The translations under genes and the position numbers were made by a program. Under the pieces are notes generated by a model that did not search any database, was not told where the DNA came from, and worked only from the letters and a program-made list of their open reading frames with translations. A stretch of 33,667 bases of DNA from an uncultured Smithella sp. Lineage in GTDB: Bacteria; Desulfobacterota; Syntrophia; Syntrophales; Smithellaceae. The stretch covers positions 1-33,667 of the forward strand of contig CAYGNV010000004.1 of NCBI GenBank assembly GCA_964351355.1, read 5' to 3'. This document shows, piece after piece, positions 5,577 through 31,241 of this stretch (position 1 is the first letter of the stretch; every line of letters starts with the position of its first letter).

Positions 5577-5577
5577 C

Positions 5578-6072
5578 GTGAAAGCTTTAGATCTGGCGGC
5601 TGCCAGGCTAAAAGCATATCGCCTTTTGTCCTTGCGGCCGCATTCGGAAAAAGAGCTGGGAAAAAAGCTGCGGGAAAAAGGTTTTCCCGCAGTTGTTATT
5701 GAAGAAGCGCTGGAAAAGCTCCACGATTTGAAGTATCTCAATGACGCGTCTTTTGCGGTTCAATGGGCGCGCAATCTGGCAGTCAATAAGCTCTGGGGCA
5801 ATCGGAAAATCATCGCCAGCTTGCAGGAAAAAGGTGTGCAGGCCCGTTTGATTGACGATGCTATCGCCGCGGCGCGGTGCGAACTGTCGGAAGAAGAGGC
5901 CATAACGGTTTTAGTTAAAAAGAGGGCAGCCAAAAAGAAACCGGCTGCTTTTGATATCAAAGAGAAACAGAGAATATTTCAAAGCCTGATGGGGCGTGGT
6001 TTCCCGCCGGGCTTGATTTTAAACAAAATAGGAAAGGCAGCGGAGGAAGAGTTCAATGGTGAAGACGGGTGA
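5578..6072 (+). CDS. recX: recombination regulator RecX
   Basis: The GTG start 1 nt after the recA stop gives VKALDLAAARLKAYRLLSLRPHSEKELGKKLREKGFP...YLNDASFA..., a typical RecX three-repeat helical protein of 164 aa. The track ORF from 5503 overlaps recA and is probably too long. Confidence 0.85.
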   Translation: MKALDLAAARLKAYRLLSLRPHSEKELGKKLREKGFPAVVIEEALEKLHDLKYLNDASFAVQWARNLAVNKLWGNRKIIASLQEKGVQARLIDDAIAAARCELSEEEAITVLVKKRAAKKKPAAFDIKEKQRIFQSLMGRGFPPGLILNKIGKAAEEEFNGEDG

Positions 6073-10274: not shown

Positions 10275-11235
10275 AAAAGCAAACAAGAAGAAGGCTGACC
10301 AAAAAATACAGGACGCTTTGGATATACTCAATGCCTTGGGGTTGCCCAGACAGCAACTTAATGACCGATCGGCGCTAACACTGCTTTCTTTACTGGCCAT
10401 TGAACCGGAAACTGGATGGGCGGATGCGAGTAATCCTTTAATGGGCATTACGCCTATGATGGATTTCTTTCTTGAATACTATGGGAAGAAATATGCACCA
10501 AACACCCGGGAAACAGTGCGTCGTCAAACAGTGCATCAGTTTCTCCAAGCTGCGCTGATTGTCGCCAATCCCGATAAACCATCAAGACCGACCAATAGTC
10601 CCAAAGCTGTTTATCAGATTGAACCGTCCATTCTGAAGTTGCTAAGAAGTTTCGGGAAGCCGGAATGGGAGGAAAATCTACAGAAATATCTGCGCACAGT
10701 GAAAACCCTCAAGAAGTTATATGACCGAGAGCGGGAGATGCGGCGCTTGCCCATCAGGCTGGCAGAGGGGCAGGAGATAAAACTTTCTCCCGGTGGACAG
10801 AATGTTCTGGTTAAAAAAATTGTTGAAGATTTCTGCTCTCTATTTACGCCCGGTGGGTGGATGATTTATGTAGGCGACACCCAATTAAAATGGTCATTTT
10901 ACGATGCAAAATCTCTGGCAGCGCTAGGCGTTACGATAGAAGAACATGGCAAAATGCCCGATGTGGTTGTGCATCACGTAAAGAAAAACTGGCTGATTCT
11001 GATTGAAGCTGTAACCAGTCACGGACCGGTTGACCCAAAGCGACATCAGGAATTAAAGAAATTATTTTCCGGATCGTCTGCGGGGTTGGTATTTGTGACG
11101 GCCTTTATTGATCGACACGCCATGCTGAAATATCTAAACGACATTTCCTGGGAAACAGAGGTCTGGGTTGCCGATTCTCCAACGCACTTAATCCACTTCA
11201 ATGGTGAGCGTTTCCTCGGGCCATATGAGGGTTAA
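10267..11235 (+). CDS. type II restriction endonuclease, BsuBI/PstI family
   Basis: The GTG at 10267 (GGAAGGAG upstream, 8-nt overlap with the MTase stop) gives 322 aa. The C-terminal half HGKMPDVVVHHVKKNWLILIEAVTSHGPVDPKRHQELKKLF...VTAFIDRHAMLKYLNDISWETEVWVADSPTHLIHFNGERFLGPY matches my memory of the conserved BsuBI/PstI C-terminal domain. The track start at 10192 is likely too early. Confidence 0.85.
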   Translation: MPKKANKKKADQKIQDALDILNALGLPRQQLNDRSALTLLSLLAIEPETGWADASNPLMGITPMMDFFLEYYGKKYAPNTRETVRRQTVHQFLQAALIVANPDKPSRPTNSPKAVYQIEPSILKLLRSFGKPEWEENLQKYLRTVKTLKKLYDREREMRRLPIRLAEGQEIKLSPGGQNVLVKKIVEDFCSLFTPGGWMIYVGDTQLKWSFYDAKSLAALGVTIEEHGKMPDVVVHHVKKNWLILIEAVTSHGPVDPKRHQELKKLFSGSSAGLVFVTAFIDRHAMLKYLNDISWETEVWVADSPTHLIHFNGERFLGPYEG

Positions 11236-13701: not shown

Positions 13702-14540
13702 AATTTAAACTGACTGTCATCGTCACCATAGCATTTATAATGTTTCTATCGCTCCCCGTCGAAGCAAAAAATATTTTTAAATTAGGCCATGATGTCACCA
13801 TAACAGAAGGGCAGGAAGTGGATAATATTGTCGCTGTTGGCGGACAGATCACGGTGAACGGGCTTGTTGAACAAAATGTTCTGGCTGTCGGCGGTTCCGT
13901 TGTTCTGACCAATAAAGCCGTTGTTCGGGGCAAAGTGATCGTGGTAGGTGGCGTTATAGCCAGAGGCAGCGGCTCTCTGGTCTATGGTGATATTACGGAG
14001 ATCAACTCATCCACGCTGTCATCATCTATTGCCTCCGCCCTGCGGGGTGAATCGGAAGGCTGGTCATTAATCTTAAATATTATTTCTCTGTGCTTTTTCG
14101 CCATTATCCTGATTGTCGCGCTGATCATGACATTGCTGATCCCGCGATCGCTGGCCGTTATTGCCAATGCCATTCAGACCAACAAGCTAAAATCTTTTTT
14201 AATGGGTTTTCTGGTGACCCTGATGATTGTGCCCTTCTTCATGCTGCTGGCCATTTCCATTATCGGCATCTTTCTAATACCGCTGGCGTTTACAGCGCTG
14301 CTTTTGGCGGCTATCATCGGTTTCATCGCGTTTGGTTCTCTCCTCGGTAATTTTATTCTCACCAGAATCTTCCACGGATATAAAAAATCACTGATTAAAG
14401 AGACAGTGGTGGGCTTGATTTTGCTGTGGCTTCTAGGCTGGATACCCTTCCATATCGGGATGCTGATAAAAGTATTAGCCATTACCTTTGGACTGGGCGG
14501 TGTCTTGCTGACGCTGTCTCGCAGAAAAACAAACCGGTAG
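13698..14540 (+). CDS. membrane protein: signal peptide, bactofilin-like beta-helical repeat region, then about 5 TM helices
   Basis: N-terminal hydrophobic signal (VIVTIAFIMFLSLPVEA). Repeats IVAVGGQITVNGLV / VLAVGGSVVLTNKAVV / VIVVGGVIARGSGSLV. Long hydrophobic C-terminal half. ATGA overlap with the dedA stop. Confidence 0.55.
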   Translation: MKFKLTVIVTIAFIMFLSLPVEAKNIFKLGHDVTITEGQEVDNIVAVGGQITVNGLVEQNVLAVGGSVVLTNKAVVRGKVIVVGGVIARGSGSLVYGDITEINSSTLSSSIASALRGESEGWSLILNIISLCFFAIILIVALIMTLLIPRSLAVIANAIQTNKLKSFLMGFLVTLMIVPFFMLLAISIIGIFLIPLAFTALLLAAIIGFIAFGSLLGNFILTRIFHGYKKSLIKETVVGLILLWLLGWIPFHIGMLIKVLAITFGLGGVLLTLSRRKTNR

Positions 14541-14571
14541 GAAAGCGCCACCTTGCTACCGGTTTTGTTTT
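14531..14571 (+). terminator. rho-independent terminator candidate
   Basis: AAACCGGTAG (14531-14540, containing the TAG stop) pairs with CTACCGGTTT (14556-14565) across a 15-nt loop, followed by tgttttc. Confidence 0.55.
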
Positions 14572-14614
14572 CAATCCGTATGGCATATAAATACGGACTC
14601 CGCTAACCTTTGAT

Positions 14615-16329
<1,715 letters not shown>

Positions 16330-16407
16330 TTAATGTTTTTATTTAATTGCCCGTGTGGTTTTTACTATAACAAAACACAAAATAAATCAATTTTCGGGAG
16401 GGTTGAT

Positions 16408-17835
16408 CTATCCTAATTTCTTGGCCAGTAATTCTCGGATGATTTTCGGATTGGCCTTGCCGCCGGAAGCCTGCATCACCTGGCCGATCAGAAAGCCCAT
16501 GGCTTTGCCCTGGCCGGCGCGGAAATCGGCAACCGCCGCTGGTTGTTCACTTAAAACCTTGTCGATCAGCGCATCGAGGGCAGTAACATCAGAAACCTGC
16601 TTAAACCCTTTAGCGCTGATGATCTCTTCCGGGGATTCGTCACTGTCAAACAGATGCGTCAGAACCTCTCTTGCCGCGTTGGCGTTGATCTCATCCTGCG
16701 AAAGCATTTTCAGCAGCGCGGCAAAGCGCGCGGGGGTTACAGGGGAACTGCTCAGTTCCTGCTTGCGGTCTTTGACGGCCGGGATTAGTTGCGTGGTGAG
16801 CCAGTGCATGGCTGTGCGCGGTGCGGTCCCTTGTCCAATCAGCGCCTCAAAGTAGGCTGCAACTTCCGGGTCGGAACTCAAAAAAGTGGCTTCCTCGCCG
16901 GTCAGTCCGTGCTGTGTGATAAAGCGTTCGGCCCTTGCGGCGGGCATTTCGGGAAGACGCGAACGCGTCTTCTCGATCCAGTCTTTCGATAATTCAATGA
17001 CCGGAACGGTGGGATCAGGAACACAGGGGCCTTCAAACTTGCCGCGCATCGCCAACGTGACTTTTTTGTCCGGGTCCCATAAGCGGGTATGCAGAATAAC
17101 CGCTTCGCCTGTCTGGACAGCCGTGCTCTGGCGGGTAATTTCGTATGAGATGGCATCGGCCACATGACGGATGGAATTCATGTTTTTAACTTCCACTTTG
17201 GTATTCATCTGGCTGGTTCCCTTGGGACGTATGGAAATGTTGGCATCGACGCGCATCGTGCCGTTTTCCATGCTGCACTCGGAAGATCCCACGTAACGCA
17301 CCTGCGTGCGCAGCGCCTTGAGAAATTCCATCGCCTGATAGGGCGTGCGGAAATCCGGTTCTGTGACGATTTCCACCAGCGGAGAGCCTGCGCGGTTGAA
17401 GTCCACCAGGCTGATTGGCAGGCGTCCTTCCATTTCATGCATCAGCTTGGCGACGTCTTCTTCCATGTGGATATGATGAATGCGCAGTTTTTTGGATTTG
17501 CCGTCCTCATCCGTAATGTCGATGGCGCCGCCGCGCGAAAGGGGGAGATGGGCCTGGGATAACTGGTAGCCTTTCGGCAAATCCGGATAGTAATAAACCT
17601 TTTGGTCAAAGGCGCTTCGGGGCTGAAGTTGTGCACCCAGGCCCAGACACAAAAGCGATGCTTTTTCCAGCGCGTCCTGGCTCAACCTGGGAATGGCGCC
17701 TGGAAACCACAGGCAGGTCGGGCAGGTATTGGCGTTGGGTTCGTCGCCGGGATTGTTGGGGCAGTCGCAAAATAATTTCGTTTTGCAATTGAGTTCAACA
17801 TGGATTTCTAATCCGATGACCGCTTCAAATTCCAT
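16408..17835 (-). CDS. gatB: Asp-tRNA(Asn)/Glu-tRNA(Gln) amidotransferase subunit B
   Basis: MEFEAVIGLEIHVELN..TKLFC.C, DFNRAGSPLVEIVTEPD, the YqeY-like tail ...FLIGQVMQASGGKANP. 475 aa. The start shares 1 nt with the upstream stop (TAATG). Confidence 0.95.
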   Translation of the reverse strand: MEFEAVIGLEIHVELNCKTKLFCDCPNNPGDEPNANTCPTCLWFPGAIPRLSQDALEKASLLCLGLGAQLQPRSAFDQKVYYYPDLPKGYQLSQAHLPLSRGGAIDITDEDGKSKKLRIHHIHMEEDVAKLMHEMEGRLPISLVDFNRAGSPLVEIVTEPDFRTPYQAMEFLKALRTQVRYVGSSECSMENGTMRVDANISIRPKGTSQMNTKVEVKNMNSIRHVADAISYEITRQSTAVQTGEAVILHTRLWDPDKKVTLAMRGKFEGPCVPDPTVPVIELSKDWIEKTRSRLPEMPAARAERFITQHGLTGEEATFLSSDPEVAAYFEALIGQGTAPRTAMHWLTTQLIPAVKDRKQELSSSPVTPARFAALLKMLSQDEINANAAREVLTHLFDSDESPEEIISAKGFKQVSDVTALDALIDKVLSEQPAAVADFRAGQGKAMGFLIGQVMQASGGKANPKIIRELLAKKLG

Positions 17836-19037
17836 TACTGTTTGCCTCCTTCGCGCGTCTTCAAAATATGTTCACCCAACGCGAGTAGCCGCGCGTCACT
17901 GAGTCTTGGCCCCGCCAGTTGAAATCCTGATTGCGCCGTGCCTGACGGAGGCGGCAGATACAATGCGGGCTGACCGGTGACATTGGCAAAAGCCGTCAAG
18001 GCGAATTGCTCGTACGTATCGGCCAGCTGTGCGGGTTCGCCGGATGAGGAACCGCTTGAAGCCGGAAACAACAGAAAGTCCGCCTGCGACGTGACCTTCT
18101 CCATGTCCGCAAGCAGACGCGCGCGGATGCGGCAGGCGTCTTCAGAAGCTTTGTAGCGTTGAAACTGGAAAAATGCGCCCTGAAGCAGATAGCTTTTCAA
18201 AAGTGAGCCAAAGGCCGCGCTTCGTGAAGAGAGATACATGTCGTTCCAGTTTTTGGCGCCGGGCGCGCGCTCGCCGTAACGGACAGAATCATAACGTCCG
18301 GTTGAGGAGGAGGCCTCCACGGAGCCGATGATTTTATGGACGAGCAAAAAAAGAGAAAAGTCGGGCAGAGACATTTCCTTGATGGGAAAGCCCGCTTTTT
18401 TGAGTTCATCGACCGAGGCTTGAAACCTGGTTTGTTCGCCTTCGGGTAAAGCGCTTGGCGCTTCCGTAATGACCCCGATGGTTGTTTTTTGCGGGTCGAT
18501 TTTTTGCGGTGAAAAATCCGGGGCCTTTTCATCGGGGAGTGAAAAATCCAGTTCGTCCGGACCGGCGATGGTCTTCAGAATCTCCTGAATGTTTTTCAGA
18601 CTGCCGGAAACAAGTCCGCAGCATTCCATCGACGGAATCAGACCAATGATGCCGAAGTGCGACACCAGGCCGTAACTGGGTTTGAAACCGCAAACGGCAG
18701 CAGCCGAGGCGGCCAGACGGCTTTCGCCCATCAAATCTAAAACCAGTTCTGCATCGGCAGCCTGTCCTTTGAGCGCCTCACCGGCCTTGCTGCCCGTGAG
18801 ACCAAACCCGAATTCACTCATACGGGTTGAACCGCACAAAGAGGCCCCGGCTTGATGCAGCCGCTGTACAAGCGTTGCGTCTTCCAACGCTTTAAAATTA
18901 ATCAGCGCGTTTGAACCGGCGTCTGTCGGCCAGCCCGCCGCCGAGATGTTGGGTTGAATCGCAATTTTTAACCCCTGCAAAGAACCGCTGCCGGAGGCGG
19001 CGGTTTCGGGATTGCGATAGAAAAAAATAGAATCCAT
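17835..19037 (-). CDS. GatA-like amidase-fold protein, shortened and apparently lacking the Ser-cisSer-Lys catalytic triad
   Basis: At 400 aa it is shorter than the roughly 485 aa typical of GatA. It is colinear with GatA (MSEFGFG, CGFKPSYGLVS, FANVTGQPALYLP). IKDNI is IQPNI, the GGSSGGSAAAVA block is absent, and DTGGSIR is DLMGESR. AGGGAGA RBS. It sits in the gatA position between aspS-gatC and gatB. Confidence 0.75.
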   Translation of the reverse strand: MDSIFFYRNPETAASGSGSLQGLKIAIQPNISAAGWPTDAGSNALINFKALEDATLVQRLHQAGASLCGSTRMSEFGFGLTGSKAGEALKGQAADAELVLDLMGESRLAASAAAVCGFKPSYGLVSHFGIIGLIPSMECCGLVSGSLKNIQEILKTIAGPDELDFSLPDEKAPDFSPQKIDPQKTTIGVITEAPSALPEGEQTRFQASVDELKKAGFPIKEMSLPDFSLFLLVHKIIGSVEASSSTGRYDSVRYGERAPGAKNWNDMYLSSRSAAFGSLLKSYLLQGAFFQFQRYKASEDACRIRARLLADMEKVTSQADFLLFPASSGSSSGEPAQLADTYEQFALTAFANVTGQPALYLPPPSGTAQSGFQLAGPRLSDARLLALGEHILKTREGGKQ

Positions 19038-19051
19038 GAAGATTTCTCCCT

Positions 19052-21172
19052 TTATTCCAGAATGCTGGCGACTTTAAAGTAATTGCCCTTAACCGAAGGC
19101 GCGCTCTTGAGCAACTTGCCTGTTTGTGACAGGGCCGAGCGTTTTTCTTCAGTTCCCGGGCGCGTGCGGTTGGCGACAGGGACAACCGTGCAGATCGGCT
19201 CTTCGCTGCCCGCCTTTTCGGCGGCAAGCCCTGCCAGCTTTCCGGCCTGAACAAGCATCTCCTCCATTCCGGGGCGCTCTTCTGCCGTAATGCCGATGCG
19301 CGACACCCAGGACAGATGATCGATCTGGTTTTCCTTTTCGGCTGTTCCGGGCAAAACATCCTGGCCGCCCAGATTCAACAGCCCCAATTCGGCCAGCTGC
19401 TCGCGTTTCACCGCAGAGGGCGCGCCGGTCAGGGGACAGCTGGCGCTGCGGTTTTTGGGAAAAGCGATCACCTCGCGGATAGACGGGGTTTGCAGAATCA
19501 TCGACACGGTGCGGTCCATGCCAAGGGCCAGCCCGCCATGCGGCGGTGCGCCGAAATCAAAAGCCCGCAGGAAAAAGCCGAACTTTTCCTTGGTCTCTTC
19601 TTCAGTCAGTCCCAGCGAGGCAAATATTTTGCGTTGCACATCGCGGTCGTTGATGCGGATGCTGCCGCCGCCCAGTTCCTCGCCGTTCATGACCAGATCG
19701 TAGGCTCGTGAGCGCAGCGTCAGCAGTTCTTCAATATTTTTCGGATCGAAATCGATGCGGTCCGGTGCGGTAAACGGATGGTGGCTGGAGGTGACACCCC
19801 CTTCATCGGTGGGTTCAAACAGCGGGAATTCCGTGACCCAGACCGGATAAAAGCTATTGGCGGGAATGAGCCCCAAACGATTCGCCAGATGCAGGCGCAA
19901 TTGGCCGAGTACCGACGTGACAATGCTGTATGAGGGATCGGCGATCATAATCAGGACATCCCCGTCGGCCACGTCGAATTTTTTATGCAACGATTCCAAT
20001 TCCTGTTTGCTGAAAAACTGAACGATATTGGATTCGAGTTTTCCGCCTTCGGCGCGCATCCAGGTCATGCCCTTGGCGCCGAATGACGGCGCGATTTCCT
20101 TGGCATATTCATTTTGCAGGACATTCTTACTAAGCTTTTCGGACTGGCCTTTTATGTTGATGCCCTTGATGCAGCCGCCGCGCTGCATCATCTGGCGGAA
20201 GATCGAATAATTCGTTTTCAAAAACACATCCGTCACATCGACAAAACGCAGGCCGAAGCGCAGATCGGGGCGGTCGGAGCCGGTCGTGTCCATCGCCTCC
20301 GCATAGCTCATGCGGGCGAAGGGCCGGGAAAGCGCAATGCCGCCGACGGCGAACATCTTGACGGTCAGTTCTTCAATCAGGTCATAGAGAAATTCTTCAT
20401 CAATGAAAGAGGCTTCAATGTCAAGCTGGGTAAATTCCGGCTGCCGGTTGGGACGCAGATCTTCATCGCGGAAGCAGCGCGCCAGCTGAAAATAGCGTTC
20501 CATGCCGCCGATCATGAGCAGTTGTTTGAAGAGCTGCGGCGACTGGGGGAGAGCGTAAAAATTCTGCGGATGGACGCGGCTGGGCACCAGGTAATCGCGT
20601 GCGCCTTCGGGTGTGCTTGCCGTCAATACCGGCGTTTCGATTTCCAGAAAGCCCCTGGAGTCGAGAAACTCTCGGACGCATTGAAATATGCGGTGCCGGG
20701 CCATGAGATTGTCCCGCATCTGCGGACGACGGATATCCAGATACCGGTACTGGAGCCTTAAGTCCTCAGCCACGTTATCTGCACCCGCGGTAGCCGCGCC
20801 TGCGACCATGGCTTTGTCGGAAACGGCAAAAGGCAGAGCGTCCGATTCGGAAAGCACAGTCAACTCCGTGACCATCACTTCAATATTTCCTGTTTCGATG
20901 TTTGGATTTTCCGCGCCATCGAGCCGCTTTTTGACTTCGCCCGAAACCGCGATGCAATATTCGGCGCGCAGCGCGCCCGCCTTCTGGCAGACGTCTGCTG
21001 CCAAGACTTCGGGGCTGAACATTATCTGCATAATGCCGCTGCGGTCACGCAGATGGATAAACAGCAGGCCGCCGTGATCCCGGAAGGCATCCACCCAGCC
21101 GCAAAGCAGCACCCTGCGTCCGACATCATCGGCAGTCACTTGCCCGCAAAAGACACGTTGGGAAAAAAGCAT
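19052..21172 (-). CDS. aspS: aspartate--tRNA ligase (bacterial type with GAD insertion) fused to a C-terminal GatC-like domain
   Basis: The AspRS core includes FIHLRDRSG, LRLQYRYLDIRR, FLEIETPVLT.STPEGARDYLVPSR, FYALPQSPQLFKQLLM, RCFRDEDLR.NRQPEFTQLD and GGLALGMDR. After about aa 598 come an 18-aa linker and 90 aa (IDHLSWVSRIGITAEE...EP...NRTRPGT...LLKSAPSVKGNYFKVASILE) resembling GatC. The total is 706 aa, versus about 590-600 for typical bacterial AspRS. Confidence 0.85.
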   Translation of the reverse strand: MLFSQRVFCGQVTADDVGRRVLLCGWVDAFRDHGGLLFIHLRDRSGIMQIMFSPEVLAADVCQKAGALRAEYCIAVSGEVKKRLDGAENPNIETGNIEVMVTELTVLSESDALPFAVSDKAMVAGAATAGADNVAEDLRLQYRYLDIRRPQMRDNLMARHRIFQCVREFLDSRGFLEIETPVLTASTPEGARDYLVPSRVHPQNFYALPQSPQLFKQLLMIGGMERYFQLARCFRDEDLRPNRQPEFTQLDIEASFIDEEFLYDLIEELTVKMFAVGGIALSRPFARMSYAEAMDTTGSDRPDLRFGLRFVDVTDVFLKTNYSIFRQMMQRGGCIKGINIKGQSEKLSKNVLQNEYAKEIAPSFGAKGMTWMRAEGGKLESNIVQFFSKQELESLHKKFDVADGDVLIMIADPSYSIVTSVLGQLRLHLANRLGLIPANSFYPVWVTEFPLFEPTDEGGVTSSHHPFTAPDRIDFDPKNIEELLTLRSRAYDLVMNGEELGGGSIRINDRDVQRKIFASLGLTEEETKEKFGFFLRAFDFGAPPHGGLALGMDRTVSMILQTPSIREVIAFPKNRSASCPLTGAPSAVKREQLAELGLLNLGGQDVLPGTAEKENQIDHLSWVSRIGITAEERPGMEEMLVQAGKLAGLAAEKAGSEEPICTVVPVANRTRPGTEEKRSALSQTGKLLKSAPSVKGNYFKVASILE

Positions 21173-21202
21173 GAGAATCGTCCTTTCTATTCAAACAGTT
21201 GA

Positions 21203-21235
21203 GGCACAAATTTGTGTATGCGACAAATTTGTGCC
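21203..21235. promoter_or_regulatory. 13-bp perfect inverted repeat, 7-nt spacer, 31-63 bp upstream of the aspS start (operator or 5'-UTR hairpin candidate)
   Basis: GGCACAAATTTGT-gtatgcg-ACAAATTTGTGCC. Each arm itself contains the palindrome ACAAATTTGT. Confidence 0.3.
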
Positions 21236-21345
21236 GCGAAGCGTATCAAAACTGTTCTGATGTTTCAAGGTTTTAAAGCTGAAACTGACAAGAAAAAAAC
21301 TCAGTTTTTTCCGACAGGCAGGAGTTCGCTGAATTTGATATTTTG

Positions 21346-21399
21346 CTCGTTCCCAATCTCCAGCTTATTTACTCGTTCCCAATCTCCAGCTTGGGAACG
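21346..21399. repeat. tandem 21-nt direct repeat (26-bp period); the second copy forms a 9-bp hairpin (REP-like element)
   Basis: CTCGTTCCCAATCTCCAGCTT occurs at 21346-21366 and 21372-21392. CGTTCCCAA-tctccagc-TTGGGAACG spans 21374-21399. Confidence 0.6.
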
Positions 21400-21491
21400 G
21401 CCTTGTTCTTGAAGCTCTGCTTCCCGTCATTCTCGCTCAATTACGAGAAACTTAGTATTTTAGGTTCACTCTGTCCCTCATATTTCCAACA

Positions 21492-21519
21492 ACTTAATTA
21501 CTTAAGGGCGTCCCCATTG
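21492..21519 (+). repeat. 28-bp repeat, copy 1 (direct)
   Basis: ACTTAATTACTTAAGGGCGTCCCCATTG, 94 bp upstream of the brnT start. Identical to copy 2. Confidence 0.85.
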
Positions 21520-21577
21520 CCCCCCTTGGGCAGCTCCGGCTCAGCTCTACGTTATGCCAAAATACTCAATTTAAATC

Positions 21578-21606
21578 TTGACAACTGTATATGATGTATA
21601 TATGCT
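21578..21606 (+). promoter_or_regulatory. candidate promoter of brnTA
   Basis: TTGACA (21578-21583), a 17-nt spacer, then TATGCT (21601-21606). This would give a very short or absent leader before ATG 21613. The spacer contains the repeated tgtata/tatatg. Confidence 0.35.
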
Positions 21607-21612
21607 TAATTT

Positions 21613-21951
21613 ATGACAGAAGAAAAAGACAAATTAGATATCCTGTTAAAGTGTACAGGTTTTGAATGGGATGAACATAATTCTAATAAAATTTGGATTA
21701 AACACCATGTTTCTCCTTCCGAATGTGAGCAGACATTTTTTAATATCCCTTTAATAATTTTTGACGATATAGATCACTCTGCCACAGAGAAACGCTACTA
21801 TGCACTTGGCTATACTGATGGGATAAAATATTTATTTATCGCTTTTACTTTAAGAAATAAAAAAATCCGTGTAATTTCTGCCAGAGATATGAATCGAAAA
21901 GAAAGGAAAGAATATGAGCTCCATAAAGAAAATACCAAAATTCAAAAGTGA
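21613..21951 (+). CDS. brnT: BrnT family toxin (DUF497)
   Basis: FEWDEHNSNKIWIKHHVSPSECEQTFFN ... YALGYTDGIKYLFIAFTLRNKKIRVISARDMNRKERKEY is the typical DUF497/BrnT layout. 112 aa. Confidence 0.8.
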   Translation: MTEEKDKLDILLKCTGFEWDEHNSNKIWIKHHVSPSECEQTFFNIPLIIFDDIDHSATEKRYYALGYTDGIKYLFIAFTLRNKKIRVISARDMNRKERKEYELHKENTKIQK

Positions 21952-22186
21952 AGATGAAGAAAGAACTTTTTGGGCAACACATGATTCAACAGAATATATG
22001 AATTGGAAAAAAGCAAAAAAAGTTATGTTATCAAATCTTAAACCTTCGGTAAAATCAATTTCACTTCGTCTCCCTGAATCAATGATTGAAGAGCTTAAGC
22101 TTCTTGCAAATAAAAAAGATGTTCCATATCAGTCTTTGTTAAAGATATTTCTTGCGGAAAGAATCGGAGAAGAATTGAAAATTTAA
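21914..22186 (+). CDS. brnA: BrnA family antitoxin (RHH/CopG-like)
   Basis: IPKFKSEDEERTFWATHDSTEYM ... ISLRLPESMIEELKLLANKKDVPYQSLLKIFLAERI is the typical BrnA. It overlaps the brnT 3' end. Confidence 0.8.
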   Translation: MSSIKKIPKFKSEDEERTFWATHDSTEYMNWKKAKKVMLSNLKPSVKSISLRLPESMIEELKLLANKKDVPYQSLLKIFLAERIGEELKI

Positions 22187-22190
22187 AATT

Positions 22191-22257
22191 GCATAACAAT
22201 GCGCTGCACGGGATCGGCGCGCAAGCGCGCCTCCCCGTGAGCTCCGTCGTTAGGATA
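22191..22257 (+). other. attC-like imperfect palindrome directly after the brnA stop
   Basis: Outer TAAC (22194-22197) pairs with GTTA (22249-22252). Inner stems are CACGGG/CCCGTG (22207-12 / 22234-39) and GGCGCG/CGCGCC (22216-21 / 22226-31), with unpaired bases between them. Span is about 63 bp. GCATAAC ... GTTAGGA approximates RYYYAAC ... GTTRRRY. Confidence 0.3.
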
Positions 22258-22262
22258 ATAGA

Positions 22263-22340
22263 ATGATAAAATCGATTGAAACCAAGTATAAAGAAATCAA
22301 ATTTCGAAGTAGATTAGAAGCACGGTGCACATTCCGATGA
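22263..22340 (+). pseudogene. 25-codon remnant of a gene with the YK..FRSRLEAR(W) N-terminal motif
   Basis: MIKSIETKYKEIKFRSRLEARCTFR-stop. The motif ...FRSRLEARWA.FFD opens a family of phage/plasmid nuclease-like proteins as I recall it. Here the ORF ends where a 23-bp tandem repeat begins. Confidence 0.35.
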
Positions 22341-22341
22341 A

Positions 22342-22379
22342 ATCGGCCGGCTGTTCCGGGTGAAAACGGCCGGCTGTTC
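22342..22379. repeat. imperfect tandem repeat, 23-bp period
   Basis: ATCGGCCGGCTGTTC (22342-22356) and AACGGCCGGCTGTTC (22365-22379). Confidence 0.6.
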
Positions 22380-22409
22380 TGATGCAAATCAGCCACCCTT
22401 TGAGTAGTT

Positions 22410-22455
22410 ACTTAATTACTTAAGGGCGTCCCCATTGGTCCCATTGGTCCCCGAT
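22410..22455 (+). repeat. 28-bp repeat, copy 2 (direct), followed by two further GTCCC(C)ATTG-type iterations
   Basis: ACTTAATTACTTAAGGGCGTCCCCATTG at 22410-22437, then GTCCCATTG and GTCCCCGAT. It lies 91 bp upstream of the antitoxin start. Confidence 0.85.
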
Positions 22456-22527
22456 AGCCTGCTGAGAGACGCCAAAGCCAAAAAAGCTTACGCAGGACAA
22501 GGACAAGTATCTTAAGAGAGGTATTCT

Positions 22528-22755
22528 ATGAACACTGCACAAACCACGGAAAACATTAGCCACCAGGAACTTACTCTCCTGGAAAAACTTCGGGTGTTGC
22601 CCCCGGATAGAGTTCATGAGGTAGAGGATTTTGTCGATTTTCTGAGGCTTGCAGATGAAGACCGGCGGCTGATCCGGGAAGCGGCAAAGCTATCCGAAAA
22701 TGCTTTTTCTGCTGTGTGGGATAATCCGGAGGATGCCGCATATGACCGGCTATGA
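22528..22755 (+). CDS. antitoxin (DUF2281-like) of the MazF/PemK module
   Basis: 75 aa. LRVLPPDRVHEVEDFVDFL is typical of small DUF2281-type antitoxins. It overlaps the toxin start by 14 nt. Confidence 0.65.
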   Translation: MNTAQTTENISHQELTLLEKLRVLPPDRVHEVEDFVDFLRLADEDRRLIREAAKLSENAFSAVWDNPEDAAYDRL

Positions 22756-23080
22756 GTTCGGCGACATCGTTCTGATACCTTTTCCATTCACCGATCAAAC
22801 AACAACTAAGAAACGGCCTGCCGTGGTGGTCAGCTCAGCGGCTTATCATCGTTATCATCCCGACATTATTCTCATGGCCATAACCAGTCAGGTAAAATCA
22901 AGCATGGCGTGCGGCGAAGTATTACTGACCCAATGGAAAGCCGCCGGTCTTCTTAAACCGTCCGTCATAAAACCCGTCTTCACAACCGTAGAAAAAAATC
23001 TTGTCATAAAAAGTCTGGGGCAACTCCACGAAGATGATCAGCAAGCCCTCAAAAAAGCCTTACAGATTATTCTGGGATAA
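22742..23080 (+). CDS. mazF: type II toxin, MazF/PemK family endoribonuclease
   Basis: From ATG 22742: MTGYEFGDIVLIPFPFTDQTTTKKRPAVVVSS...ILMAITSQV...LKPSVIKPVFTTVEKNLV. This is the PemK/MazF SH3-like fold signature (G.I....FPF.D....K.RPA.V.S). 112 aa. Confidence 0.85.
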   Translation: MTGYEFGDIVLIPFPFTDQTTTKKRPAVVVSSAAYHRYHPDIILMAITSQVKSSMACGEVLLTQWKAAGLLKPSVIKPVFTTVEKNLVIKSLGQLHEDDQQALKKALQIILG

Positions 23081-23589: not shown

Positions 23590-25041
23590 TTATTGATCCC
23601 TTGTTGCGGGTTTGGCGCCTTTCGTCTGGATGCTTTTTTGAGTGTCTGCCGACCACCCGCCACCTAGCGCTTTTATCAGCAAAGCGGCCGCTCTCATACG
23701 CTGGCCGTTGATGCTGATGGCTGTCCTTTCATTAGACAAGGCAAATGTCTGGGCGACGACCACGCTCAGGTAGCTGACAATACCGGCTCGATACTGGTTG
23801 GTTGTGAGCTGGACGGACTCGCGCGCGGCTTGGACGGCCTCCTGTTGCACCCGGGCTTCTTCCTCCAGAATCCGCAGCGCGGCCAGATTGTCTTCCACGC
23901 TCTGGAAAGCCGTGAGCACGGTCTGTCTGTAATAGGCCACCGTGCCGTCATATGCCGCCTGGGCCTGGTCGGTCTTTGCCTGACGCGCTCCGCCATCAAA
24001 TATTGTCGCAGCCGCGACCAAAGGGCCTATGGCCCAGAAAAAATGAGGCGATGTAAACAGGTTGGCCAGTTCTACGCCTTGATAACCCAGCGATCCTGAA
24101 AGCGTGATCGAAGGATAGTAGGCCGCCTTGGCCACCCCGATCTGGGCGTTGGCTGCCGCCATTTTTCTTTCTGCCGAGGCGATATCCGGCCGGCGCTCCA
24201 GCAAGTCGGAGGGAAGGCTCACCGGTATCTTGATAGGCGGCCATTGGAATTCAGCGGGCGGCAGTGTAAGGTCTGCGGGCGGCTTCCCCGTCAGAATTGC
24301 AATGGCATGTTCCAGCTGAGCGCGATAAATACCGAGGTCCATCGCTTGAGCCTCTACCGATTTCAGTTGCATCCGGGCCTGAACAGTGTCTGCTTTTGCC
24401 GCGACGCCCGCATTGTATCGGTTTTCCGTCAGCTTCAGCGCTTTTTCGTAGGCTGCGACCGCCTCGTCAAGATTTTTTTTCTGTTCATCAATCATTCGCA
24501 ACTGGTAATAGTTGAGCGCCAGTTCCGTCTGCATGGACAACCGCATGGCCTGGAGGTCAGCAAATGAGGCCTGCGTGGAAGCATGGCCCGCCTCCACCTG
24601 GCGCCGCACTTTTCCCCAGATATCCAATTCCCATGAAGCGCCAAGCGACAGCTGATGGACATTGGCGATGTCACGCCCTGTTGAGGGTCCGCGAGACCGC
24701 TGGTAGGCGGTATCTGCGCCTACGACGGGAAAATATTTTGATCTGGCCAGTTGAATTTGCGCCATGGCCTGGCGGTATTGTGTCTCCGCAAGGGCGATAG
24801 ACTGGTTGGAAACATTAACCTGTTCCACAAGCCCATTCAGGACGGGATCGTTGAACATTTCCCACCATTTTCCCCGGGCGGTGTCGTCTTGCGGCTGGGC
24901 CTGTTTCCAGCCCTTGATCTCCTTAAAGGCAGCCGGCACGTCGGTTTCCGGCCTGGCATAATTCGGCCCCACCGAGCAGGATGACAGGAGGAACGGGGCA
25001 ATGACCGCGGCCGCCATCATGAGAAGAAGCGGCTTGGGCAT
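23590..25041 (-). CDS. RND efflux outer-membrane factor lipoprotein (NodT family), in frame with and not separated by a stop from upstream mdtC
   Basis: MPKPLLLMMAAAVIAPFLLSSCSVGPNYARPE is a signal peptide with lipobox LSSC plus the canonical GPNY.RP start of NodT OMFs. 483 aa from ATG 25041. Confidence 0.85.
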   Translation of the reverse strand: MPKPLLLMMAAAVIAPFLLSSCSVGPNYARPETDVPAAFKEIKGWKQAQPQDDTARGKWWEMFNDPVLNGLVEQVNVSNQSIALAETQYRQAMAQIQLARSKYFPVVGADTAYQRSRGPSTGRDIANVHQLSLGASWELDIWGKVRRQVEAGHASTQASFADLQAMRLSMQTELALNYYQLRMIDEQKKNLDEAVAAYEKALKLTENRYNAGVAAKADTVQARMQLKSVEAQAMDLGIYRAQLEHAIAILTGKPPADLTLPPAEFQWPPIKIPVSLPSDLLERRPDIASAERKMAAANAQIGVAKAAYYPSITLSGSLGYQGVELANLFTSPHFFWAIGPLVAAATIFDGGARQAKTDQAQAAYDGTVAYYRQTVLTAFQSVEDNLAALRILEEEARVQQEAVQAARESVQLTTNQYRAGIVSYLSVVVAQTFALSNERTAISINGQRMRAAALLIKALGGGWSADTQKSIQTKGAKPATRDQ

Positions 25042-28000
25042 CGTAAGTCCAGGTCTCTTTTTTTCAAACCGGGCTCTGAATCGGTCCAGGTACAGATAGA
25101 TCACCGGCGTGGTATATAAGGTGAGCATCTGGCTCACGATCAGCCCGCCGATAATGGAAATGCCCAGGGGGCGGCGGATTTCCGACCCCACTCCGGCGCC
25201 GAGCGCCAGGGGAAGCGCCCCGAGCATGGCGGCCATGGTCGTCATCATAATGGGCCGGAATCTTAACAGACAGGCCTGGTAAATAGCATCCATAGGACTT
25301 TTTCCCTCCTTGCGTTCCGCTTCCAATGCAAAATCCACCATCATGATTCCGTTCTTTTTGACGAGGCCGATGAGGAGGATAATCCCGATCAACGCGATCA
25401 CACTCAGTTCGGCGCCAAAAATGAGAAGCGCCAGGAGCGCCCCCACCCCCGCCGAGGGAAGAGTGGACAGAATTGTAATCGGATGAATATAGCTTTCATA
25501 AAGAATTCCCAAAACGATATACACGGCAATCAGGGCTGCCAGAATCAGCAGGGGCTGGTTTGCAAGCGATTCCTTGAATGCCTTGGCGGTTCCCTGAAAA
25601 CTGCCCCGGATCGTGGGAGGCATGTTCATCTCCCGCATGGCCGTTTCTACGACGGTAATGGCCTCCCCCAGGGTGACGCCGCGCTCCAGATTGAACGAAA
25701 TCGTCACCGAGGGGAGCTGACTCTGATGATTGACGGTCAGAGACGTCGTTTTGTTTTCAAACCGGGCAAAGGCGGCGAGCGGAACGGCCTCGCCGTTCGG
25801 GGGCGTCACGTAAACATGATGGAGCGTCTCCGGGTGCTGCAAGAAGCGCGGCTCGACTTCCATCACCACGCGGTACTGATTCAGAAGCGTGTAGCTGATC
25901 GAAATCTGCCTCTGCCCGAAGGCGTCATAGAGCGCCTCGTCGATCAGGGCGGGCCGGATGCCGAAGCGGGCGGCCGCATCCCGGTCGATAACGACCGAAA
26001 CCTGGAGCCCCTTCTCCTGAAGATCGCTGTTCACATCGGTCAGTTCCTTCATTCCGCCCATATGTCTGCGCATCTTGGCGGCCCACACATTCAGTTCCGC
26101 GAGGTTTTCCCCCTGAAGCGTATATTGATAAAGAGCGCCGCTCGATCTTCCCCCGATCCGGAGGTCCTGAACAGGCTGCAGAAAGGACGGCGCTCCCGGG
26201 ACCATGTAGAGTTGCCGGCGCAGCCGCGCAATCACATCCTGGACGGATGATGCTCGTGATTCGGGGGGCGTAAGAGCAATGTTCATCCTTCCTTGGTTTG
26301 TGCCCGTGCCGCCCCCCGTGTAGGCTGATACCGAAGTGACATCAGGATCTTTCCTGACGATCTCCGTGATAATGGTCAGCTTTCTGCGCATGGTCTGAAA
26401 AGAGGTTGTCTGGTCTGCGTGAATAATGGCGCCGATCCGTCCTGTATCCTGCTCCGGAAAAAAGCCTTTAGGGATAAAAATGAAAAGGGTAATACTGAGG
26501 ACGACCATGGCGAGCGTCAAAGACAGCATCGTCCGGGGATGGCGCAAGGCAAAACCAAGGCTCAAATCGTAAGCGTGGTGCATCCGGTCGAATGCCCGCG
26601 CTGCGGCCTCGTAAAAGCGCCTTTTCTTTTTGGGGTTTTCGGACTCCGTCTTCGATTTTAAAAGGGCTGCGCACATCATGGGTGTCGTGGTCAGGGACAT
26701 TACGAGCGAGATGAGGATGGCCACCGAGAGGGTGATTGCGAATTCGCGGAAGAGTCGTCCGACGATCCCCTTCATCAACAGGATGGGAATAAATACGGCA
26801 ACAAGCGAGATCGTCATGGACACAACAGTGAAAGCGATTTCCCGCGATCCTTGCAGGGCCGCTTCGAGGGCCGTCGCCCCTTTTTCCATGTAGCGCGTTA
26901 CATTTTCAAGGACGACGATTGCGTCGTCCACGACAAAGCCGGTTGAAATCGTCAGCGCCATGAGGGAAAGGTTGTTGAGGCTGAACCCCAGCAGGTGCAT
27001 GATGGCAAAGGTCCCGACGATGGAAACCGTTACGGCCACGCCGGGGATCAACGTGGACCGGAAATCCCTGAGGAAAATAAATACAACCAGGATGACGAGC
27101 AGCAGAGAGATCACCAGCGCCTGTTCCACTTCCCGAAGCGAGCCGCGGATCGAAGGCGTCCGGTCCTGAGTGACGGCCAGTTCAATCCCCCCCGGCATGG
27201 CGGCTGTCAGCTGCGGGATCAGCTCCCGGATGCGATCGACGGTTTTGATGATATTGGCGTCCGGCTGGCGGTAGATCAGAACACTGACGGCCGGTTTGCC
27301 GTTGACGATTCCGAAGGTGCGCATATCTTCCACGGAATCATGGACGTAGGCGACATCCGTCAGCTTCACCGCGGCGCCGGACCGGTAGCTCACGATCAGA
27401 TTCCGATAGTCCCTGGCTTTGTGAAGCTGATCGTTGGTCTGGATCTCCCAGGTTTTCTCGTCATTCATCAACTGCCCCTTGGGACGGTTAACGTTTGAGC
27501 TGGCCAGGACGCCGCGCATCTCCCTCAGGTTAATGCCGTACTTGTTGAGCGCCATGGGATTCATTTCCACCCGGACAGCCGGGAGTGATCCACCGCCGAT
27601 GTAAACATGGCCGACGCCCTCCACTTGACATAACTTCTGCTGAAGGATGGTGGAGGCCGCATCATACATCTTCGGCGGGTCCACCGAATCGGATGTCAGG
27701 GCGAGGATCAGGATCGGGGCCTCGGCGGGATTGACCTTGCGGTAAGTCGGATTGCCATGGAGATCTGAAGGAAGGCTCCCCAGAGCGGCATTGATCGCAC
27801 CCTGAACATCGCGGGCCGCCCCATCGATGTTTCTGTCCAGATCGAACTGCACCACGATATTCGTGTAGCCGCGGTTGCTCATGGAGGTCATTTCCGTCAC
27901 GCCGGCAATGTTACCCAACTTCCTTTCCAGCGGCGCCGCGACCGATGTCGCCATCGTCTCGGGATCACCGCCGGGCAGCCTTGCCGTAACCAGGATCGTG

Positions 28001-28128
28001 GGAAAATCGATGCGGGGCAGGGACGAGACAGGCAGCAACTGGAACGCGACGATTCCGGCGAGCGCGAGCCCGATGGTCAGAAGCGTGGTCGCAACGGGGC
28101 GATGGATGAAGAGTTTCGATATGTTCAT
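25042..28128 (-). CDS. mdtC: RND multidrug efflux permease MdtC-like (1029 codons, no stop codon of its own)
   Basis: [65 protein letters not shown] closely tracks E. coli MdtC as I recall it. ATG 28128 overlaps the mdtB stop (ATGA). The extra 12 codons of the track ORF (from 28164) lie inside mdtB. Confidence 0.85.
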
Positions 28129-31100
28129 GGCCGCTTTAGACTCCCGTTGTTTGTGGCAGGCCAAACGAACCGCGCTTTTTGCATGCGGCGCGCCAGGCGA
28201 TCAAACGCGAGATAGATAACCGGCGTTGTATAAAGCGTGAGAATCTGGCTGATCACGAGCCCGCCGACAATCGAAATGCCCAGGGGATGGCGCAACTCCG
28301 AGCCGACGCCCGTTCCGAGCGCCAGGGGAAGCGCTCCGAGAAGGGCCGCCATGGTGGTCATCATAATGGGGCGGAACCGCAGAATACTCGCCTGGTAGAT
28401 CGCCTCTTCGGGCGGCAATCCGTCTTTGCGCTCGGCTTCCAGGGCGAAGTCCACCATCATGATTCCGTTCTTTTTCACAATGCCGATCAGGAGGATGATG
28501 CCGATGACGGCGATGACGCTCAGGTCCGTGTGGAAGAGGATCAGCGCGATGATCGCCCCCACCCCCGCGGAAGGCAGCGTGGAGAGAATCGTGATCGGGT
28601 GAATGTAGCTTTCATACAGGACGCCGAGCACGATATAGACGACAATAAGCGCGGCCAGGATCAGGAGGATCTCGTTGTTCAGAGCGGATTGAAAGGCTTT
28701 GGCTGTCCCCTGAAAGCTTCCCCGGATACTCGGGGGGACACCGATCTGCCGTGCGGTTTCCTCGACGGTTTCGACCGCCTTGCCGAGTGAGACGCCGGGC
28801 GCCGGATTGAACGAAACCGTCACTGCGGGAAACTGCCCCTGGCGGTTGATGACGAGTGGTCCGGTGGTCTCTTCCACCCTCGTGATCGAGCCCAGGGGGA
28901 TGCGCGCCCCGTTCGTCCCGCGCAGGTGGATCGAATGGATATCCTGTGGATCTTTCTGGAACTGGGGCTTTGCGACCAGAACAACTTTATACTGGTTGGA
29001 TTGTGTGAATATGGTGGACACCTGGCGCTGCCCGAAGGCGTTGTAGAGTGTGTCGTCGATGAGCTGGGGCGTGATTCCGAAGCGGGAGGCGCTGGCGCGG
29101 TCAATGGTGATCGATGCGCGCAACCCCTTGTCCTGCTGGTCGCTCGTGACGTCCCTCAATTCCGGCCGGTTGCCGAGCGTTTCCACCAGGCGGGGAGCGA
29201 AATCATTCAGAATCTGGATATCCGGGCATTCCAGGGTATAATTAAACTGTGTCCGGCTGATGCGGGGATCAACCGTGAGGTCCTGAACCGGCTGCATGAA
29301 AAGGGTAATTCCCTCGACCGCGGCCAGTTCCCGCTTGAGCCGAAAAATGATCTCCTGCGCTCCGGTCCGGCGCTCTTCCAGAGGTTTCAGGTTGATCAGG
29401 ATGCGGCCGCTGTTCAAGGTCGTATTGATCCCGTCCACGCCGATAAACGAGGACAGGCTTTCGACGGCTGGATCTTTTAGAATCGTCTGGGCCAGCGCCT
29501 GCTGCCGCTTTGCCATCGCGGCAAAAGAGATCGACTGCGGCGCTTCCGAAATGCCGAGGATGACGCCGGTATCCTGAATGGGGAAGAAGCCTTTGGGGAC
29601 GACCACATAAAGAATAACCGTGAGAACAACCGTCACCCCCATCACCATAAGCGTTAGTCCCTGATGTTTCAGCACCCACTGCAGTGTCCTTCCGTAAGAG
29701 GCAATCACCCGGTCGAACCACTGCCGGGATGCGGCGAAAAACCGTCCCTGCTCGGATACCGGTTTGTGTTTCAGTATCCTGGCGCACATCATCGGCGTCA
29801 GCGTCAGCGAAACGACCGCCGAGATGAGGATCGTCACGCCGAGCGTGATCGCGAATTCCCGGAAAAGCCTTCCCACCACGTCCCCCATGAAGAGGAGCGG
29901 GATGAGGACGGCGATCAGGGAGACCGTCAGAGAGAGGATCGTGAAACCGATCTGCTTGGAACCTGTGAGCGCCGCCTCAAGGGGGGGCATCCCCTGCTCG
30001 ACATAGCGTCCGATGTTTTCGATCATGACGATGGCGTCATCGACTACAAAGCCGGTGGAGATTGTCAGCGCCATGAGGGACAGGTTGTTGAGGCTGAAGC
30101 CCATCAGGTACATGACGCCGAACGTGCCGATGAGGGACAGGGGAACGGCCACGCTGGGGATGGTGGTCGCGGCCAGGCTCCTGAGAAAGAGGAAAATAAC
30201 CAGAACGACGAGCGCAACGGCCAGAAGGAGCTCAAACTGCACGTCCCTGACCGATGCGCGGATTGTCGTTGTCCGGTCGGTCAGCACCGTGACCTTCACC
30301 GAGGGGGGAAGAGAGCTTTGAAGCTGCGGTAAAAGCTTTTTGATCCGGTCAACGACCTTGATGACGTTGGCCCCCGGCTGGCGCTGAATGTTCACAATAA
30401 CGGCCGGGGTGGCGTTCATCCATGCCGCCTGATTAACGTTTTCGATATGGTCAATGGCTTCGGCGACATCGGAAAGCCGGACAGGGGCGCCGTTTCTGTA
30501 AGTGATAATGATTTTTGCAAACTCGGCGCCGGAAAAGAGCTGGTCATTGGCGCCGATATTGTAAGCCCGGTGGGGGCCGTCGAAATTTCCTTTGGCCTGA
30601 TTGACGTTTGCCGCAACGATTGCCCCGCGCAGGTCTTCCAGCGTCAGGTTGTAAGCGGCCAGGGCGGTTGGATTGGCCTGTATTCGCACAGCCGGACGCT
30701 GTCCGCCACTGATTGTGACCAGACCCACATCGGGGAGTTGGGATATCTTCTGAACAAAGCGTGTGTCCGCCATATCCGCCACCTGGGAAAGGGGGAGGGT
30801 GTCGGAGGTGAGCGCCAGAGTCAGGATCGGGGCATCCGCCGGGTTTACCTTGCTGTAGATCGGCGGCGTCGGGAGGTCTTTCGGCAAAAAAGTATAAGCG
30901 GCATTGATTGCCGCCTGGACTTCCTGTTCGGCCACATCCAGACTCAGATCGAGTGAAAATTGAAGGGTGATGATCGAGCTGCTGCCCGAGCTCGACGAGG
31001 TCATCTGCTTCAAGCCGGGCATCTGGCCGAAATGGCGCTCCAGCGGCGCGGTGACCGCTGTCGCCATGACCTCCGGACCGGCGCCGGGATAGAAAGTCCG

Positions 31101-31241
31101 CACCTGAATGGTCGGGTAGTCAACGGTCGGCAGGGCCGAAACCGGCAGCTGGGTGTAAGCCACGAGGCCCGCCAGGATGATGGCGATCATCAGGAGCGTG
31201 GTCGCAACCGGGCGAAGGATAAAAATCCGGGAGATATTCAT
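28125..31241 (-). CDS. mdtB: RND multidrug efflux permease MdtB-like
   Basis: [66 protein letters not shown]...[23 protein letters not shown] is near-colinear with E. coli MdtB as I recall it. 1038 aa. The start overlaps the mdtA stop (ATGA). Confidence 0.9.

Follow-up and report, generated by a model that had tools for sequence, protein, structure and literature searches.

Organization of the aspS::gatC operon

The DNA considered here (the window) is a stretch of 33,667 nucleotides from an uncultured Smithella sp. (GenBank assembly GCA_964351355.1, contig CAYGNV010000004.1). It carries an operon in which the gene for aspartyl-tRNA synthetase (AspRS) runs without a break into a segment related to GatC, the C subunit of the tRNA-dependent amidotransferase GatCAB. 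Three genes, all on the (-) strand, make up the operon. The first, aspS::gatC (19052..21172), is a single uninterrupted open reading frame (ORF) of 706 aa plus stop. It is followed by a gatA-like gene, here called pseudo-gatA (17835..19037, 400 aa), whose product is, by TIGR00132 and alignment, a GatA-derived protein with a predicted amidase fold and without glutaminase machinery, and then by a canonical gatB (16408..17835, 475 aa; NF004012). The TAA of aspS::gatC is separated from the ATG of pseudo-gatA by a 14-nt spacer (19038..19051, (-) strand) that contains a Shine-Dalgarno sequence for the latter gene, AGGGAG, and the stop codon of pseudo-gatA shares 1 nt with the ATG of gatB (TAATG). 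An earlier reading of the window, made from the letters and ORF translations only (the sequence-only reading), had given the same gene spacing and had described a 706-aa aspS ORF ending in an 18-aa linker and a 90-aa tail. Both descriptions are borne out by reading the DNA directly and, for the ORF, by the ORF call. With this spacing the three genes are predicted to be translationally coupled. A promoter and terminator scan of 14400-21700 returned counts at chance level.

Residues 1-598 of the fusion protein form a complete bacterial-type AspRS, with an OB anticodon-binding domain, a class II core and a GAD insertion (Pfam, NCBIfam). The ORF scores 754.4 bits with NF001750 (cut-off 443) and 687.2 bits with TIGR00459 (cut-off 373.85), and PF01336, PF00152 and PF02938 are each above their gathering scores, tRNA-synt_2 reaching 388.7 bits and GAD 61.8. 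The N-terminal OB-fold anticodon-binding domain (PF01336; aa 21-107, 20852..21112) is followed by a hinge insertion of about 12 aa, SDKAMVAGAATAGADNVAE, which the alignment marks as specific to this family (aa ~117-135, 20768..20824), and by the class II catalytic core with the inserted GAD domain (Pfam; aa 136-575, 19448..20767). The AspRS part ends in ...REQLAELGL, after which come the 18-aa linker LNLGGQDVLPGTAEKENQ (residues 599-616, 19325..19378) and a 90-aa domain that extends from IDHLSWVSRIGITAEE to APSVKGNYFKVASILE and is GatC-homologous by the searches described below (residues 617-706, 19055..19324), all of these on the (-) strand. Across the junction of AspRS, linker and tail, the DNA, read directly, contains neither a stop nor a change of frame.

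The product of gatB scores 569.5 bits with NF004012 (cut-off 338), and its Pfam domains GatB_N and GatB_Yqey score 328.5 and 150.4 bits. It aligns over its full length with Aquifex GatB (3h0l_B, 416 bits), and the GLEIHVEL, HMEED and VTEPD motifs fall in register. By these comparisons GatB is fully canonical.

Relationship of the C-terminal tail to GatC

The curated GatC hidden Markov models (HMMs) score the tail below their thresholds, so its homology was taken from phmmer, BLASTP and profile searches. When the 96-residue tail alone was compared with 1.84 billion representative proteins, phmmer matched it to P0055 (E=2.8e-6), a canonical free-standing GatC of 101 aa with a precomputed Pfam GatC match; the gene downstream of P0055 is interrupted by the contig end and has no annotation. 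BLASTP aligns the tail with P0055 over the full length (98 columns) at 35% identity. The alignment includes the N-terminal motif I-x-H-L-S-x-x-[AS]-R-[IL]-G and the C-terminal motif AP-x-x-KG-x-YF-[KR]-V, and both of these GatC end motifs are conserved among the aligned tails. A profile built from 20 tails matches Staphylococcus aureus GatC (2df4_C) from one end to the other (E=0.0019), with residues 5-95 of the chain lying on profile positions 56-148, and matches the GatC proteins of Pseudomonas aeruginosa and Thermotoga maritima more weakly. A homologue search with the tail alone yielded contig-end fragments only and no full-length proteins, and the search of the 1.84 billion representatives cannot be used to count fusions, as full-length members cluster there under ordinary AspRS representatives. 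By these sequence comparisons the tail is significantly homologous to GatC.

A GatA-derived partner without glutaminase residues

The product of pseudo-gatA scores 215.3 bits with TIGR00132, whose cut-off is 481.1. Its residues were compared by alignment to Aquifex GatA (3h0l_A) in 75 orthologues, namely those of 74 loci described below and of the window. In GatA, a Ser-cisSer-Lys triad carries out catalysis, an Arg binds the carboxylate of glutamine and an Asp its amino group (GatFAB structure, PMC4027206). The nucleophile Ser (DTGGSIR) is replaced by Glu (DLMGESR) in all 75 orthologues and the catalytic Lys (AVKDNI) by Gln (AIQPNI) in 71 of them, while Ser is retained at the cis-Ser position in only 44. 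In the window protein the Glu is E105 and the Gln is Q28. Of the two glutamine-binding residues, the Arg has become Tyr or Phe, and the Asp has become Phe (71/75). The 20 residues ahead of the GGSSGG loop are deleted in every orthologue, and the first ~42 residues of canonical GatA are missing from the family. With the residues that bind and hydrolyze glutamine replaced, the amide nitrogen therefore could not come from a GatA glutaminase.

Other parts of the protein remain recognizably GatA. It keeps GatA-specific motifs, such as EASSxxGRYDxVRYG, and when its AlphaFold2 (AF2) model (predicted template-modelling score 0.76, mean predicted local distance difference test score, pLDDT, 65) was compared with the PDB by Foldseek, the nine best matches were all GatA subunits (TM about 0.64, E 1e-19 to 3e-17). 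The model thus predicts that a GatA-type amidase fold is retained. The gene does not appear to be decaying: it is found in every locus, and its ratio of nonsynonymous to synonymous substitution rates (dN/dS) is 0.18. The sequence-only reading had called the gene gatA-like, a label that is right as to descent and incomplete otherwise, the glutamine-hydrolyzing residues being lost across the 75-orthologue alignment. The partner is better described as a conserved amidase that is predicted to be catalytically dead.

Conservation and distribution

A scan for the conserved tail motif, with one genome per GTDB species, found 89 genomes, from which 80 loci were fetched. In every locus with enough sequence the gene order is the same, fused aspS::gatC followed by a gatA-like gene of about 400 aa and by gatB. 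By tblastn, neither the 33.7-kb window nor the +-6 kb around each of the 80 loci contains a free gatC or a second gatA, which for the window agrees with the sequence-only reading that no free-standing gatC is present. Across the loci there is also no conserved fourth gene beside the operon, such as an extra glutaminase or asparaginase. The further claim of the sequence-only reading, that a complete AspRS continues in frame into a GatC homologue and shares an operon with a gatA-like gene and gatB, is supported both by the homology of the tail and by this conservation of the operon.

The labels given to the loci by their submitters are mostly Smithella, Smithellaceae, Syntrophus, Syntrophaceae, Syntrophobacter, Syntrophorhabdus and Desulfobacterales. 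Among the carriers are Syntrophus buswellii DM-2 (L008; NZ_CP175563.1) and 'ORM2a' (CP113000.1), both with complete chromosomes, and the isolate Desulforhabdus sp. TSK. The AspRS of the window is closest to those of Smithella and Syntrophus-type genomes, with 85-88% identity. The fusion is widespread in genomes of the Thermodesulfobacteriota type, and dozens of syntrophs and sulfate reducers share it. Many loci about 80% identical to Smithella or Syntrophus bear the submitter labels Dehalococcoidia, Verrucomicrobia, Pirellulaceae, Acidobacteria, Chloroflexota or Competibacteraceae, which points to mislabelled or contaminated bins of metagenome-assembled genomes rather than to a wide phyletic spread.

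Selection on the operon was estimated by the Nei-Gojobori method, comparing the window with 13 relatives. The dN/dS values are 0.087 for the AspRS core, 0.15 for the linker, 0.17 for the GatC tail, 0.18 for the GatA-like protein, as given above, and 0.09 for GatB. Every part of the operon is under purifying selection. Among 20 aligned tails the linker is gap-free in 19, the remaining protein (P0019) being without that stretch, and the Pro-Gly of its 'LPG' is invariant.

The hinge insertion, of the form SDKAMVAGAxTAG...VAE, sits between the anticodon-binding and catalytic domains of the fused AspRS. It is present in all the fused AspRS proteins aligned, is not found in the AspRS of Escherichia coli or P. 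aeruginosa, and is missing as well from the canonical AspRS that is encoded next to the fused operon in L015, L027 and L037. The insertion could provide an extra contact for a tethered amidotransferase or for tRNA.

A probable tethered asparagine transamidosome

We think it probable that the products of the three genes form an asparagine transamidosome, hard-wired by the covalent link, in which the amide nitrogen does not come from hydrolysis of glutamine by GatA. Complex formation, the charging of tRNA(Asn) and the use of ammonia as donor are all points that we infer from the sequences. The bacterial-type AspRS would supply a dimeric core, each chain of which would end in a GatC 'belt' clamping one GatA-derived scaffold subunit and one GatB. 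The strict operon linkage suggests that the belt may lie around the GatA-GatB interface. Asp-tRNA(Asn) made at the AspRS site would pass directly to GatB without being released, and GatB would phosphorylate and amidate it to Asn-tRNA(Asn). As amide donor, free ammonia or ammonium would be the likeliest; it might travel to GatB by way of the GatA pocket, now vacated, and the tunnel. Amidotransferases are known to work with NH4Cl in vitro, and with this donor one GatFAB mutant impaired in glutaminase activity was faster than the full-length enzyme (PMC4027206). As a speculation, the invariant Glu/Gln at the old active site could form a new entry for ammonium.

The fused AspRS has a His ('RDHGG') and a Gly ('LDGAENPN') at the positions of H31 and G82 of the non-discriminating AspRS (ND-AspRS) of P. 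aeruginosa, as placed by alignment to E. coli 1c0a and P. aeruginosa 4wj3_M; in the P. aeruginosa enzyme these residues favour the use of tRNA(Asn). No tRNA genes are present in the window. A gene for glutaminyl-tRNA synthetase (GlnRS), recognized by the RFPPEPNGYIHIGHAKS motif, stands beside the operon in four Smithella-type loci (L002, L004, L024 and L038), in the first three of them downstream of gatB on the opposite strand. The amidotransferase is therefore not needed for making Gln-tRNA(Gln) in those genomes. For Syntrophus aciditrophicus SB, gene counts have been published: asnA 0, asnB 1, gatCAB 1, aspS 1, asnS 0 and glnS 1, with a tRNA(Asn) that has a U1-A72 pair (PMC4206432 Table S1). 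If the single aspS of this organism is the fused gene, as in S. buswellii, its product has to charge tRNA(Asn) as well as tRNA(Asp). With asnS absent and glnS present, the amidotransferase would then be essential for making Asn-tRNA(Asn) but dispensable for Gln-tRNA(Gln). Syntrophus probably has no AspRS besides the fused one, which as the sole AspRS would be non-discriminating by necessity.

Several observations weigh against a hard-wired asparagine transamidosome of this kind, and they concern the specificity of the synthetase, the identity of the tail and the reach of the searches. Four Smithella-type loci have a second, canonical AspRS of 590 aa in a hisS-aspS operon adjoining the fused one (L015 2161-3933, L037 1351-3123, L027 9964-11742 and L031 12082-12336). 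This canonical enzyme is about 47% identical to its fused paralogue, and both paralogues carry the ND-type His and Gly. The use of His31 and Gly82 to tell non-discriminating from discriminating AspRS was rejected for the reason that the co-resident canonical paralogue has the same residues. The presence of the fusion in S. aciditrophicus is extrapolated from S. buswellii (L008) rather than seen directly. As to the tail, the sequence-only reading had identified it as GatC, and the phmmer, BLASTP and profile results are significant, but the score with the PF02686 HMM, at 16.0 bits, is below the threshold of 23; TIGR00135 gives 14.6 bits against a cut-off of 47.1, although the alignment covers model positions 3-93 of 93. 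AF2 models the isolated tail as two N-terminal helices followed by an extended chain, with low confidence (pLDDT 61). Such a model would fit a belt-like subunit that needs its partners in order to fold, and does not count as independent evidence. Finally, the search for other gatA and gatC genes spanned only +-6 kb at each locus and the window.

These points bear unequally on the alternatives. One alternative is an artefact, in which an overlooked stop or frameshift has made a single long ORF out of aspS and a separate gatC. It has in its favour the general possibility of such errors in metagenome assemblies and nothing else. Such an error is excluded because three independent contigs yield exactly the same 706-aa protein and because about 70 other genomes, including the complete S. 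buswellii and ORM2a chromosomes, have the fusion intact. The fixed length, conserved LPG and low dN/dS of the linker (0.15) also speak against an artefact, as does the finding that the tail alignment and the DNA contain no conserved in-frame start codon ahead of the tail. The comparative data (contigs, other genomes and linker conservation) rule the artefact out, and we give it next to no weight. The tail might instead be derived from GatC but repurposed, as a tRNA-binding or dimer-stabilizing extension of an AspRS that acts alone and recruits neither GatA nor GatB. Its scores under the curated GatC thresholds and its lack of a confident stand-alone fold in AF2 would agree with this. However, it is known from GatCAB structures that canonical GatC likewise lacks a fold when its partners are absent. 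In addition, the tails keep both GatC end motifs, the linkage to pseudo-gatA and gatB is strict, and no other gatC that could serve as partner of GatB was found within +-6 kb of the loci or in the window. Repurposing is thus very improbable.

A more serious alternative is a conventional glutamine-dependent amidotransferase, in which a canonical GatA, and perhaps a free GatC, would be encoded elsewhere in the genome, and pseudo-GatA would be an alternative, regulatory or assembly subunit. The gatCAB count of 1 for S. aciditrophicus, given without detail, is compatible with it (PMC4206432 Table S1). Paralogue pairs do occur in the pathway, as the two AspRS genes of some loci show, and a canonical gatA or gatC farther away than the +-6 kb around the loci, or beyond the window, would have escaped the search. 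Within that range, however, no second gatA or gatC was found in the 80 loci or in the 33.7-kb window. Moreover, pseudo-gatA is placed between the GatC tail and gatB, with predicted translational coupling, and it is universally kept under purifying selection, as would be expected of a stoichiometric partner. We therefore consider the conventional arrangement unlikely, though still to be reckoned with. The hard-wired transamidosome with nitrogen from a source other than GatA remains the preferred reading, and a stronger form of it can be stated only tentatively: the operon may encode the only tRNA-dependent amidotransferase of these organisms (Syntrophia, Syntrophobacteria, Syntrophorhabdia and some Desulfobacterales), an obligately glutamine-independent, ammonia-using asparagine transamidosome with the Glu/Gln pair as the ammonium entry to the tunnel. 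We regard this form as possible but rather doubtful.

Comparison with known systems

The best sequence and fold matches of the operon proteins are PDB chains of known GatCAB and transamidosome proteins. The non-covalent asparagine transamidosomes of Thermus thermophilus (3KFU), P. aeruginosa (4WJ3) and Helicobacter pylori have the same components and presumably the same logic, an ND-AspRS together with GatC, GatA and GatB that channels Asp-tRNA(Asn). They differ in that they consist of separate proteins, assemble in a tRNA-dependent or dynamic manner and have an active GatA glutaminase, whereas in the present system GatC is part of the AspRS chain and GatA is predicted to be dead. A synthetase is likewise tethered to GatC in the glutamine transamidosome of T. 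maritima (3AL0), whose chain C is annotated as 'GatC, Linker, Glutamate--tRNA ligase 2' and is matched by the tail profile. That fusion is artificial, has the order GatC-synthetase and concerns glutamyl-tRNA synthetase and tRNA(Gln); the present one is natural, has the order synthetase-GatC and would concern AspRS and tRNA(Asn). Carbamoyl-phosphate synthetase I keeps an inactive glutaminase domain in an enzyme that uses ammonia. Although its protein family is unrelated, it may by analogy serve as a conceptual precedent for a dead glutaminase module.

Two further systems resemble the fusion in part. The GatF subunit of yeast mitochondrial GatFAB is a GatC-like belt with an appended region, in likeness to the fused tail, and GatF mutants impaired in glutaminase activity still transamidate with NH4Cl (PMC4027206). 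The extension of GatF, however, is a scaffolding peptide for an active GatA with the Ser-cisSer-Lys triad, whereas that of the fusion is a synthetase. The GlnRS-YqeY protein of Deinococcus radiodurans is a natural synthetase with a C-terminal domain from the amidotransferase machinery; that domain is a paralogue of the GatB tail that aids tRNA binding and not a subunit that recruits an amidotransferase (PMC1865053).

The sequence-only reading had left open whether the fusion was already catalogued. At the database level it is: NCBIfam has a model, NF009460 (PRK12820), named 'bifunctional aspartyl-tRNA synthetase/aspartyl/glutamyl-tRNA amidotransferase subunit C', and carriers are widespread. 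The window protein scores 1348 bits with this model, residues 1-706 aligning with model positions 18-723 of 723, and misses the cut-off of 1379 by 31 bits; on its own, the tail reaches 123.5 bits over positions 612-723. To all appearances the cut-off is set to admit only sequences very near the seed. Because it is so high, the PGAP annotation in RefSeq names the fusion only "aspartate--tRNA ligase", as in WP_367360460.1 of S. buswellii. The gatA-like partner is named "amidase family protein" (RefSeq), "hypothetical protein" or GatA (JGI). Full-text literature searches aimed at natural fusions of AspRS and GatC, or at GatCAB in Syntrophus or Desulfotalea, turned up no paper on such a fusion, nor any experimental or descriptive paper behind NF009460, which is an annotation label, and a major review of aminoacyl-tRNA synthetases presents the transamidosome solely as a complex of separate proteins. 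The fusion thus appears to be on record in databases but to have been neither described nor studied. With its fused GatC, a conserved GatA predicted to be dead and a presumably active GatB, the whole system would be a new variant of the transamidosome and of GatCAB.

Other features of the window

Directly upstream of aspS, a stretch of low GC content (0.40) at 21613-23080 on the (+) strand contains two type II toxin-antitoxin pairs, one with BrnT and a CopG-type antitoxin and the other with a DUF2281-like protein and a PemK/MazF toxin. An ORF of 1524 aa (23590-28164, (-) strand) combines an RND permease (Pfam ACR_tran, aa 15-1026) with an outer-membrane efflux protein (Pfam OEP, to aa 1501), with a lipobox-like LSSC at the junction, and is preceded by a second RND permease gene (28125-31241). 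It is either a fusion of RND and outer-membrane factor genes or the result of a missed stop. Two restriction-modification modules (2219-4445 and 8754-11235) flank recA-recX (4560-6072) and alaS (6056-8698). One module consists of an AccI-like endonuclease fragment and an N6 methylase, and the other of an Eco57I-type methylase and a BsuBI/PstI endonuclease. Local GC content falls to 0.36-0.43 at these modules.

Implications

The names in current use create an annotation problem: with the fusion labelled 'aspartate--tRNA ligase' and its partner 'amidase family protein', automated pathway reconstructions will list gatC, and in many cases gatA, as absent from these organisms. Transamidosomes have been described as transient, non-covalent or tRNA-dependent, and crystallographers engineered a GatC-synthetase fusion to trap one. 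A natural AspRS-GatC fusion found throughout a clade would offer structural and kinetic studies of substrate channelling a complex that is stable from the outset.

Of more consequence than the fusion is that GatA has lost its glutaminase site throughout the family. If these genomes have no canonical GatA, this would be the first natural tRNA-dependent amidotransferase that is unable to use glutamine, and it would bear on the evolution of the ammonia tunnel and on the nitrogen and energy economy of syntrophic bacteria. No glutamine would then be spent per Asn-tRNA(Asn) made, which would save the ATP used by glutamine synthetase. For syntrophs, which live near the thermodynamic limit in ammonium-rich anaerobic habitats, this would be a plausible adaptation.

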